Both the position numbers and the translations under genes were made by a program. This document shows, in pieces, positions 25,241-27,666 of a stretch of 32,000 nucleotides of DNA; within the stretch, counting starts at the first letter, position 1, and the number at the start of each line of letters is the position of its first letter. Origin of the DNA: Promethearchaeota archaeon (GTDB taxonomy: Archaea; Asgardarchaeota; Lokiarchaeia; Sigyniarchaeales; Promethearchaeaceae). The notes below the pieces were generated by a model. That model did not search any database. It was given only the letters and a program-made list of their open reading frames with translations, and had not been told where the DNA came from. Where the stretch lies: contig JAFGBS010000019.1 in the NCBI GenBank assembly GCA_016933055.1, positions 120,001 through 152,000 on the forward strand, in the 5' to 3' direction.

Positions 25241-26365
25241 TCAATAGATTCTATTCTTTTTATTTAATATTTCTGTTTGGATAATGTCTTTTAATTTAGG
25301 TAATGCATGGATATAAAACTGTTTCCAACCAGAGCACAAAGAAGAAAGGGATGATGGACGGGTCCAATCGGAATACCCACGAAACTTCTGGCAATCCCCA
25401 TTACATAATAACAAGTAATCACATTTCCTACATATTTCAGAATATTGAGATTTCTGGGATGCAAATTTTCTGAATATTTCGGAATTGAGTAATTCTTCCC
25501 ACGTATTTTCCAAGATGTTTCCTATTTTCAAATCATCCTGTACAAAGAAATCACAGGGATATACATCCCCATTTGCTTCAACGACAAAATATGTATTACA
25601 TGCTTTTCCCATCTGGCATATATTGTACCTCCCATACACAAGATATTCAATCACTGAATCAAAATGACGGATGGACACGCGATGAATATCATCCTTTACC
25701 CATTCATCAAAGATATCGCACATGAATTTACCCCATTCTTCCCCCGAAATGGCATACGGCTCAAGTTTGTTGTCCTTATTCCATTCAACGCAAGGGATAT
25801 ATTGATGATAATAGAAATGTTGATTTTTAAGATATCGATAGACTTGTTTTGCACGTCTTACATTTGCTTGAGTGACCAATGTCAAAATATTGAATTCTAC
25901 TTGATGTCTTTTAAGAATATTAATGCCACCCATAACCATATGATGAGTAGGTTTTCCATCTTGAGTTTTTCGATATTTATTATGAATTTCTGGAGGTCCA
26001 TCAATACTTACTCCAACGAGAAAATGATAGTTATAGAATAATTTCGCTAACTCCTCAGTTATAGCGATACCGTTCGTTTGGAATCCGTTTGCTACTTGAC
26101 TACCTGATTTACCATATTCTTTTTGATATTTAACAACATTTTGGTAAAATTCATAACCCATTAAGGTGGGTTCGCCACCTTGGAATGCGAACCCGTATAC
26201 TGGTTGTGGCGTTGCCATATAGGACTTCACAAGATGCTCCAATACCTCATTCGACATTCGTGGTGATGGCTTATGAGGATCTAAATGATCGAGATAAAAA
26301 CAATAATCACATTTTAGGTTGCAACTTGCACCTGCGGGTTTGATGAGGAGGGAAAAGGGACGCAA
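25241..26365 (-). CDS. Anaerobic sulfatase maturase-type radical SAM/SPASM enzyme (TTG start)
   Basis: LLIKPAGASCNLKCDYCFYL, FQGGEPTL, QTNG, GVSIDGP, SPASM CQMGKAC...GDVYPCDFFV...CRKC...CNGDCQKFR. Confidence 0.93.
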   Translation of the reverse strand: MRPFSLLIKPAGASCNLKCDYCFYLDHLDPHKPSPRMSNEVLEHLVKSYMATPQPVYGFAFQGGEPTLMGYEFYQNVVKYQKEYGKSGSQVANGFQTNGIAITEELAKLFYNYHFLVGVSIDGPPEIHNKYRKTQDGKPTHHMVMGGINILKRHQVEFNILTLVTQANVRRAKQVYRYLKNQHFYYHQYIPCVEWNKDNKLEPYAISGEEWGKFMCDIFDEWVKDDIHRVSIRHFDSVIEYLVYGRYNICQMGKACNTYFVVEANGDVYPCDFFVQDDLKIGNILENTWEELLNSEIFRKFASQKSQYSEICRKCDYLLLCNGDCQKFRGYSDWTRPSSLSSLCSGWKQFYIHALPKLKDIIQTEILNKKNRIY

Positions 26366-26391
26366 AGGACATTACTCCATAATTTAAAAAA

Positions 26392-26514
26392 TGGTGGGAG
26401 GGGGGCGATTTGAACGCCCGACCACCCGGTCCCAAACCGGGTATCATACCAAGTTGTCCCGATCGCGCCCAGTTTTCATAAAACCTCGGCACACATCGCC
26501 TAGACAACCCTCCC
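26392..26514 (-). tRNA. tRNA-Pro(UGG) with encoded CCA and a 46-nt intron in the D-loop (position 15/16)
   Basis: Exon 1 GGGAGGGTTGTCTAG (26514-26500); exon 2 CTTGGTATGATACCCGGTTTGGGACCGGGTGGTCGGGCGTTCAAATCGCCCCCCTCCCACCA (26453-26392). Spliced product is a 77-nt cloverleaf. Confidence 0.93.
26454..26499 (-). other. Non-canonical tRNA intron with relaxed bulge-helix-bulge junction
   Basis: GCGATGTGTGCCGAGGTTTTATGAAAACTGGGCGCGATCGGGACAA. Exon GTCT pairs with intron GGAC, 3-nt bulge AG/G, inner helix CGAT/ATCG, then an imperfect hairpin. Confidence 0.88.
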
Positions 26515-26627
26515 GCGGAATATTTTGGATTTAATTTCATGAATCTTGAATATCACGGTTAGAGTACATTTCCTACACTCCATAAAAACTAAAAAGTTTT
26601 TCTTTTGAAAGCGAGAAAAATGGGAAC

Positions 26628-27611
26628 TTATCTTCGTTTTGACTTCTTTAGAAAGTCTTCTACATCTATCCCAATATTCTTATGAATATATTCATGTAAA
26701 AATTCGATTTTATGTTTATCTTTTTCAATATTTCCTAATTCCCGAGCAAGATTGGACTGATTCTTATATTTCCATATTACATTAATGTATTCAGTTACCA
26801 CATCAATAAATTCGAGATAATTTTTTCGGAATATCAAAATTAGATCCATTTCCCCCAATCCCTTTTTTTTTAATATTGATTGGATGAGCTGTTTTTCATA
26901 GGTTGCAGTGTAATATTTCTGCTTAGTCCAACCCCGATTGTCCACATTAAAGGTTGAAAATTCAATTTCAGAATTATTGGGGTATTTATTAGAAATGTAG
27001 AGATCAGTGTAGGCATTTAATTCGCTTGTAACATGAATTGGAATTAAACTCTGAACCAATCCTCCCAACTTCTTGGTTAGGAAATCATCACCTACAAGAA
27101 CAAGTTTATGATTTGCCGCATGTCGTAATACTAACGAAAGGTTATCTAAATTAATTAACTCAATTGCTCCTTGGAGAGTTAAGGTTTGTCGAGTAGTAAG
27201 ATCGACTGATTCCTCCGCTGCTTGCGCACGATATACTTCTTTTTGAGTATCTGTTATTTCCTGGAAGGAATCAAACACAGTGTACTCCCCGTTATGATTA
27301 ACGAGTTCCTGATTATACTCCTCAATAAACTGATTCAAAAGGGGGATGAGGAAATGCATTTTAATCAGATCATCGGAATCCTCTTGATCCGATATACAAA
27401 TCCCAATTAATTGTTGTTTTGTCGTGTAAAGCCATTTACGATTTGCGATTACCATAGTCCGAATTTGTCCTTCTCCAATAGATTCTGCAAAATTTCGTAT
27501 AGCGGATATAAAACCTGACAAAAGTGAGAGATCCGTATGATTTTTCCCTTCATAATCACGACTGAATAAATAATCACCTGTTTCAGAAATTATAAGGAAA
27601 TGTTGGATCAT
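26628..27611 (-). CDS. Longin-domain protein with DENN-like C-terminal region; start ATG 27611 or TTG 27656
   Basis: HFLIISETGDYLFSRDY...LLSGFISAIRNFAESI...IRTMVI...WLY...IGICISD...LLNQFIEEY is a longin/sigma-adaptin-like pattern. The C-terminal assignment is tentative. Confidence 0.7.
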   Translation of the reverse strand: MIQHFLIISETGDYLFSRDYEGKNHTDLSLLSGFISAIRNFAESIGEGQIRTMVIANRKWLYTTKQQLIGICISDQEDSDDLIKMHFLIPLLNQFIEEYNQELVNHNGEYTVFDSFQEITDTQKEVYRAQAAEESVDLTTRQTLTLQGAIELINLDNLSLVLRHAANHKLVLVGDDFLTKKLGGLVQSLIPIHVTSELNAYTDLYISNKYPNNSEIEFSTFNVDNRGWTKQKYYTATYEKQLIQSILKKKGLGEMDLILIFRKNYLEFIDVVTEYINVIWKYKNQSNLARELGNIEKDKHKIEFLHEYIHKNIGIDVEDFLKKSKRR

Positions 27612-27666
27612 TGGCTTAACACTGTTTAATATTGATAGGTATGATCCACCATCCAAACTATCTTAA

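Follow-up and report, generated by a model that had tools for sequence, protein, structure and literature searches.

The window, i.e. the whole 32,000-nt stretch of DNA analysed here, corresponds to contig C27:120001-152000 of a 3.76-Mb, 36-contig, 91%-complete genome. On its minus strand, between a gene for a 342-aa protein (26628-27656) and a radical-SAM gene (25241-26365) that lie on the same strand, it carries a tRNA-Pro(UGG) gene at 26514-26392. The gene is interrupted by 46 nt between tRNA positions 15 and 16, and the coordinates and the strand assigned to it by an earlier reading of the letters alone (the sequence-only reading) are correct throughout. The interrupted gene is, judging by its sequence, very likely the working tRNA-Pro(UGG) of a Lokiarchaeial (Asgard) archaeon. 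Its features, listed along the direction of the gene, are the following:

26500-26514, minus strand: exon 1 (15 nt, GGGAGGGTTGTCTAG), containing the acceptor 5' strand, U8, U9, the D-stem 5' strand, A14 and G15.
26502-26505, minus strand: 5' strand of the central helix H, exon nucleotides 10-13 (GTCT), with 4/4 pairs to intron nucleotides 41-44, one of them G-U.
26499-26501, minus strand: 5' bulge A14 G15 / G (intron nucleotide 1) with the predicted cut after 26500; a 3-nt bulge in the MFE fold of the precursor.
26454-26499, minus strand: non-canonical intron of 46 nt at tRNA positions 15/16, the excision of which gives tRNA-Pro(tgg) in ARAGORN.
26495-26498, minus strand: 5' strand of the inner helix h', intron nucleotides 2-5 (CGAT), seen in the folds of intron and precursor and in the covariation.
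26460-26463, minus strand: 3' strand of the inner helix h', intron nucleotides 37-40 (ATCG), stacked directly on H.
26456-26459, minus strand: 3' strand of the central helix H, intron nucleotides 41-44 (GGAC), part of a GGGACAA intron end that is the same in the AMARA-1 relative L086.
26453-26455, minus strand: 3' splice-site triplet A45 A46 / C16 with the predicted cut after 26454; AA/C follows directly after GGAC.
26392-26453, minus strand: exon 2 (62 nt), containing the rest of the D-loop and D-stem, the anticodon arm, the variable loop, the T arm, the acceptor 3' strand, A73 and CCA.
26432-26434, minus strand: anticodon UGG (positions 34-36), from ARAGORN on the spliced sequence and from direct reading.
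26392-26394, minus strand: encoded CCA at the 3' end of exon 2, from direct reading.
26386-26391, minus strand: T6 run adjoining the encoded CCA, from direct reading.

Joining the two exons yields a 77-mer that ARAGORN identifies as tRNA-Pro(tgg) and in which direct reading finds a 7-bp acceptor stem, a CCCGG/CCGGG anticodon stem, G37, A73 and a UUCAAAU T-loop. The cloverleaf that was expected to appear upon excision of the 46 nt is thus confirmed by the program as well as by reading its stems, the UGG anticodon, G37, A73 and CCA. After splicing the D-arm reads TTGTCTAGCTTGGTATGATAC, exactly as in the intron-less orthologue L017, and G15 is able to form the Levitt pair with C48. Exon 2 shares 81-88% identity with the Pro(UGG) genes of relatives. 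Judging by its sequence and position, the T6 run directly after the CCA is likely an archaeal transcription stop.

The two exon-intron boundaries are embedded in a motif that represents the relaxed HBh' form of the archaeal bulge-helix-bulge (BHB). Past CGAT the inner helix h' is interrupted by a 1-nt bulge and then continues with 6 and 2 more base pairs, so that the intron hairpin totals 12 bp; the 3' splice site lies on the opposite strand, 4 bp away from the 5' site and two bases past H. Both the 3-nt AG/G bulge and the CGAT/ATCG helix leading into a hairpin, as described in the sequence-only reading, are present in the MFE fold of the precursor. The outer helix had been claimed to be missing, and indeed the bases upstream of G10 can form 0 bp with those downstream of C16, so that the motif is not of the strict canonical hBHBh' type; without an outer helix it is therefore classed as relaxed. 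A further proposal, a 6-bp pairing of exon nucleotides 8-13 with the intron end GGACAA, stands only in part: the pairing occurs in the MFE fold of the precursor, where U9 and U8 are possible partners of the two A's that precede the 3' cut, but the BHB ruler gives GTCT/GGAC only as helix H, and the last two pairs correspond to the 3' bulge. As the terminal AA can pair with U8/U9, the 3' site does not lie in a defined bulge in the predicted fold. The same predicted fold sequesters the D-stem 5' strand, in agreement with the idea that the intron would disrupt folding of the D-arm until it is spliced out.

The junction was chosen by identity of the resulting D-arm with that of orthologues and by the BHB ruler, because ARAGORN tolerates almost any deletion: it accepts nearly any 46-nt deletion in the D region as Pro(tgg) and is unfit for choosing the splice offset. 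In an offset scan, offset 15 alone restores the D-arm of the orthologues together with a 4-bp H and a contiguous h' (at least 4 bp). Among shuffled introns, an H of 4 bp combined with an h' of at least 4 bp was obtained in 0.23% of trials (P about 0.002), and when the intron was moved along the mature tRNA a 4-bp H was found at 3 of 67 positions. With the spliced cloverleaf, the offset test, the BHB ruler and the shuffle control all in its favour, the proposal of a 46-nt intron at 15/16 with a relaxed BHB is upheld.

We compared Pro(UGG) in 60 relatives and found it to be mostly intron-less. Seven Pro(UGG) genes carry D-arm introns elsewhere, at 17/17a, 21/22, 22/23 or 25/26, and in all seven the D-arm is restored by the very offset that has a 3-4-bp H (4 bp except in L029), with both cuts in register. 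The geometry of the 5' bulge is identical in every D-arm intron compared. The regularity of the other boundary bears on the question whether a real intron might be processed in a different manner, an alternative to which we give a slim chance: the 6-bp helix would create a bulge-helix-loop substrate, with the 3' cut moved or made by another nuclease and the junction shifted by at least one base. Such processing could be suspected from the pairing of U8 and U9 with the terminal AA in the MFE fold, from the lack of an outer helix and from the report that relaxed motifs often arise by chance if the boundaries are uncertain (bioRxiv 10.64898/2026.10.13.758758, section 2.4). However, of all junctions only 15/16 recreates the D-loop AGCUUGGUA shared by all intron-less orthologues, along with G15 as the partner of C48, and the 3' cut falls exactly two nucleotides past the 3-4-bp H in 8/8 of the intron-bearing genes compared first and in 7/7 syntenic orthologues.

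The 15/16 architecture itself is also found in other Asgard archaea. A pattern search in 400 genomes of the phylum yielded the tRNA-Pro(CGG) of one family (L034-L036) and, in a second family (L047, L048), a tRNA-Pro(UGG) with two introns. Another 18 tRNA-Pro genes came from a pattern scan of JGI metagenome contigs; an exact scan of JGI metagenome contigs for exon 2 of the window gene gave no match. The central helix in the other 15/16 lineages has 3/4 bp (e.g. GTCT/GGAG), and in the window gene 4/4. For the analysis of covariation we used 13 distinct exon-1-plus-intron sequences, including the window gene and L086, a set that comes from few lineages and is not made up of independent cases. The first four pairs of h' are formed in 52/52 cells of these 13 introns, with 3-4 pair types per position; when the partner strand is slid by 1-3 columns, 29-38% of the cells pair. 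As h' was absent from the search pattern, this covariation is not circular. One small-genome Asgard lineage (L064, L068, L072, L073, L076, L078 and others; G066-G068) has a 15/16 intron in both Pro(UGG) and Pro(CGG), and its Pro(UGG) carries a second insertion in the variable/T-arm region.

In its unspliced form the gene escapes common annotation tools, as the sequence-only reading had anticipated for standard scans. Default ARAGORN makes no call, ARAGORN with introns allowed (-i) miscalls the gene as tRNA-His(atg), and Rfam at its gathering score reports nothing, its tRNA model matching only the 3' part (26395-26460) with 24.2 bits against a gathering score of 29. A scan of 26300-26620 by Rfam E-value returned the partial tRNA and one chance lncRNA match, and no known small RNA within the intron. 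A spurious 77-aa ATG open reading frame (26307-26540, minus strand) spans the whole tRNA gene and may end up annotated as a hypothetical protein where a gene caller has missed the tRNA.

How much the organism depends on the gene can be judged from its other proline tRNAs. No second Pro(UGG) was found in the 91%-complete assembly by BLAST of the locus, ARAGORN, Rfam, a search for the Pro anticodon arm or an intron-tolerant scan that looks for a T-arm plus acceptor pairing, and no Pro(CGG) gene by BLAST, ARAGORN, Rfam or the intron-tolerant scan. Thus the intact Pro(UGG) that, according to the sequence-only reading, would mark the interrupted gene as a disrupted copy was looked for and is absent from this assembly. 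Besides the window gene, a Pro(GGG) with two introns (C28:70932-71064) is the one proline tRNA found. In long open frames CCA makes up 31% and CCG 12% of the proline codons (together 43%), and the interrupted gene is the sole decoder of both in the assembled genome. Because default finders miss or mislabel this sole CCA/CCG decoder, automatic annotation would report an essential tRNA as missing. The intron has no paralogue in the genome, where only chance matches of 11-17 nt occur.

These observations also bear on a very improbable alternative, namely that we are dealing with a non-functional copy, a tRNA-Pro inactivated by a 46-nt insertion while proline decoding is provided by another gene. 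If so, that other gene has to be an unassembled one, which is possible in a genome that is 91% complete, and the failure of standard tools to recognise the window gene would fit as well; yet no other Pro(UGG) or Pro(CGG) was found for codons that amount to 43% of all proline codons. Also against this alternative, the insertion sits exactly at the position given by the BHB ruler (P about 0.002), both exons are intact and match their orthologues, and an intron with compensatory changes has been kept at this very site by a congener.

Further tRNA genes of the window genome are interrupted as well. At C36:712-819 (plus strand) a gene called 'Pro(agg)' by ARAGORN is a tRNA-Gln(CUG) with a D-loop intron; with this case and the tRNA-His(atg) label of the window gene, the labels given by ARAGORN -i are unreliable in this genome. 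At C17:505254-505356 (plus strand) we find a tRNA-Phe(GAA) with a 29-nt intron at 17/17a and H = CTAG/CTAG, missed by ARAGORN and matched partially by Rfam. A 169-nt candidate tRNA, probably Trp(CCA), lies 1.6 kb past the end of the window (C27:153592-153760, plus strand); it has a perfect acceptor and T-arm, contains at least two insertions and is found by neither ARAGORN nor Rfam.

By inference from sequence the window genome belongs to an AMARA-1 species (Lokiarchaeia). At the syntenic locus, the same-genus genome G001 is identical in sequence to GCA_004524545.1, an assembly that a published GTDB table lists as Lokiarchaeia, order CR-4, family and genus AMARA-1, and both neighbours of the tRNA gene are present in G001 with 81% and 76% amino-acid identity. 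Further AMARA-1 orthologues were gathered from contigs encoding close homologues of the upstream 342-aa protein (81-85% identity). They include L086 (GCA_016839385.1), an independent assembly of a congener, with a 31-nt intron exactly at 15/16 that ends in the same GGGACAA as the window intron and has a different, 10-bp h'. That the insertion is an assembly artefact or a chimera of the metagenome-assembled genome has a negligible chance, given that the source run contains all sampled words of the stretch, that L086 independently shows the same architecture at the syntenic locus and that the flanks are syntenic with those of congeners at 76-81% amino-acid identity.

Six other AMARA-1 lineages (L084, L085, L087/L088, L089, L090 and L091) carry an intron at 22/23 with H = TGGT/GCCA, and the BHB ruler fits all seven syntenic AMARA-1 orthologues. 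No AMARA-1 lineage examined has both the 15/16 and the 22/23 intron in one Pro(UGG) gene. In the case of L086 and L091 the mature tRNAs are identical (77/77) and the intron positions differ. In two of the 22/23 lineages (L087/L088 and L090) the gene contains, further downstream, a second insertion whose start lies within the anticodon stem, on its 3' strand (following ...GGGACCG), so that the congeners differ in the number of introns as well as in their position. In a marine-sediment run (X2) we found a 702-nt contig with an exon 2 identical to that of the window gene, the match ending exactly at the exon-intron boundary; it has 66 nt where the window has 110 and, judging by these lengths, may come from an intron-less relative.

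In a tree of the upstream protein, L086 groups with L091 (support 90/93) and the window with L084 (80/88), and no other groupings are resolved. The two carriers of the 15/16 intron are not recovered as a clade; constraining them to form one costs 25 log-likelihood units and is not rejected (p-AU 0.07). Local alignment of the intron cores gave no significant similarity, neither for the pair of 15/16 introns (p 0.65) nor for 15/16 against 22/23 introns (best p 0.09); since some pairs of 22/23 introns are likewise unalignable, the cores cannot separate shared origin from independent gain. That the introns were actively relocated within AMARA-1, rather than passed on by plain descent with loss, is an idea that we regard as rather unlikely. 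As a candidate route, the intron would reverse-splice into other BHB-competent sites within the same D-arm, and the cDNA would then recombine; if true, relocation would make this locus a natural system for studying how archaeal tRNA introns arrive, a question left open by a census of 2026.

The surroundings of the tRNA gene have features of their own. A block of about 45 nt (AAAAGAAAAACTTTTTAGTTTTTATGGAGTGTAGGAAATGTAC; window 26564-26612, minus strand), located in the spacer that separates the tRNA from the stop codon of the 342-aa gene, is conserved in 9/9 syntenic AMARA-1 loci and in the X2 contig, the flanking spacer being unalignable. It sits 50-75 nt upstream of the tRNA 5' end and has no Rfam match; a possible reading is that the upstream gene has its hairpin terminator here, combined with a BRE/TATA promoter that gives a long tRNA leader. 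On the downstream side, L086 and L090 have a HAAS-domain gene in the opposite orientation in place of the radical-SAM gene, and the tRNA thus marks a synteny breakpoint.

The sequence-only reading had supposed that this lineage possesses a splicing endonuclease of broad specificity. The genome encodes two EndA homologues. The first (189 aa, L002:1453-2022, minus strand) has both EndA domains and is closest to catalytic subunits of heterotetrameric crenarchaeal enzymes, with 3p1z_B (A. pernix EndA alpha, E = 2e-40) as the best match, followed by 2cv8 and 2zyz_B. It keeps the catalytic Tyr/His/Lys triad, with the motifs FAVY, GIDH and VKKK conserved in comparison to A. pernix alpha, and its catalytic His aligns with the residue mutated in 3ajv; the lysine of the L1 loop is retained as well (VRKPK versus VEKPR of A. 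pernix, Lys44). The second homologue (242 aa, L003:1129-1857, plus strand) also has both domains, with Tyr replaced by Phe and His by Ser relative to M. jannaschii EndA, and fits a structural, non-catalytic beta subunit. A crenarchaeal-type EndA with triad and L1 lysine, accompanied by a putative non-catalytic paralogue, agrees with the supposed broad specificity as far as sequences allow to judge. The nearest named EndA homologues, with up to 87% identity, come from MAGs labelled 'Promethearchaeota archaeon', and a gene for RtcB is present in the genome. EndA of the L1-loop (αβ)2 type, which is present in Asgard archaea, cleaves HBh' D-loop introns in vitro (PMC5829648); according to section 2.6 of bioRxiv 10.64898/2026.10.13.758758, no Asgard EndA had been assayed.

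Considering the gene anatomy, the geometry of the motif, the covarying helix, the set of splicing enzymes encoded and the lack of a further copy in the assembly, all of which are observed, we estimate a probability of roughly 0.9 that this is the sole Pro(UGG) gene and that it is spliced from a precursor at 15/16 by the genome's EndA and RtcB. Transcription, cleavage and ligation are the steps that we infer. The gene would be transcribed as a precursor containing the 46-nt intron between positions 15 and 16, in which the D-stem 5' strand (G10-U13) would pair with intron nucleotides 41-44 to form the 4-bp central helix, with the 12-bp intron hairpin stacked upon it. A heterotetramer-type EndA, composed of the catalytic L1-loop alpha and the non-catalytic beta subunit, would then cut both sites, the 5' one in the AG/G bulge and the 3' one four base pairs off, after AA. 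Finally, RtcB would join the exons, and the D-arm could fold afterwards.

The sequence-only reading had left undecided whether such introns are reported in Asgard archaea; in fact, non-canonical D-arm introns and the matching EndA are already published. Kaneta et al. 2018 (PMC5829648) described L1-loop (αβ)2 EndA across Asgard together with non-canonical and multiple introns, and incomplete Asgard tRNA sets suggested undetected disrupted genes. According to Valentin-Alvarado et al. 2024 (PMC11291895), introns interrupt 92-95% of the tRNA genes in Atabeyarchaeia/Freyarchaeia and frequently occupy non-canonical positions; in Supplementary Data 4 of that study the first intron of Atabeyarchaeia-1 tRNA-Ser(GCT) begins 15 nt into the gene, and several others begin 17 nt in. 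A motif-free census (bioRxiv 10.64898/2026.10.13.758758, October 2026) reported that tRNAscan-SE missed 30% of the intervening sequences, half of them in the D-arm. In this census the enrichment at BHB boundaries was six- to ten-fold, and most genomes encoded two EndA paralogues; introns were gained repeatedly, and positions change state repeatedly, also between close relatives. Since the Asgard literature thus already contains this class of intron, the enzyme and even a case that starts after nucleotide 15, the novelty of the window gene is low. According to the published picture, it is the L1-loop EndA that allows Asgard archaea, as well as TACK archaea, to tolerate introns outside the anticodon loop.

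With the published Asgard D-arm introns the window intron shares the Asgard host, the non-canonical position, the escape from annotators, the BHB-type motif and the two-paralogue EndA. However, those studies centre on Atabeyarchaeia/Freyarchaeia (Freyrarchaeaceae and Jordiarchaeaceae in the preprint), whereas the window gene belongs to the less heavily interrupted Lokiarchaeia genus AMARA-1. The pre-tRNA-Glu(UUC) of Methanopyrus kandleri likewise has a D-loop HBh' motif, which is cut efficiently in vitro by the L1-loop (αβ)2 EndA of A. pernix (PMC5829648). It differs in tRNA, phylum and intron position (20b/21 versus 15/16) and co-occurs with a canonical 37/38 intron (PMC5829648); also, the M. 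kandleri intron is experimentally verified and the organism's own EndA has no L1 loop (PMC5829648), while the window intron is known from sequence. Aeropyrum pernix pre-tRNA-Thr(UGU) contains a D-loop intron as well, in an organism whose APE EndA has the crenarchaea-specific (L1) loop (PMC3241643, as cited in PMC5829648). Here the host is a crenarchaeal thermophile, the intron position is another one, and splicing was shown in living cells as well as in vitro (PMC3241643, as cited in PMC5829648).

For Thermoproteales (Sugahara 2008 and Fujishima 2010, as summarised in PMC4090602), BHB-dependent introns are described at many positions, including 20/21, 22/23 and 25/26 in the D-arm; 15/16 is not named in the short position list given for this group in PMC4090602. 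There, according to the same source, different tRNAs share related intron sequences, suggesting transposition, whereas the window intron has neither a paralogue nor a detectable similarity to the introns of relatives. Set against these systems, the window gene adds a well-supported Lokiarchaeia example to the published Asgard picture. The sole point that goes slightly beyond the published accounts consulted here, and this in a modest way, is the 15/16 versus 22/23 polymorphism among syntenic congeners, which provides a compact case for intron turnover.
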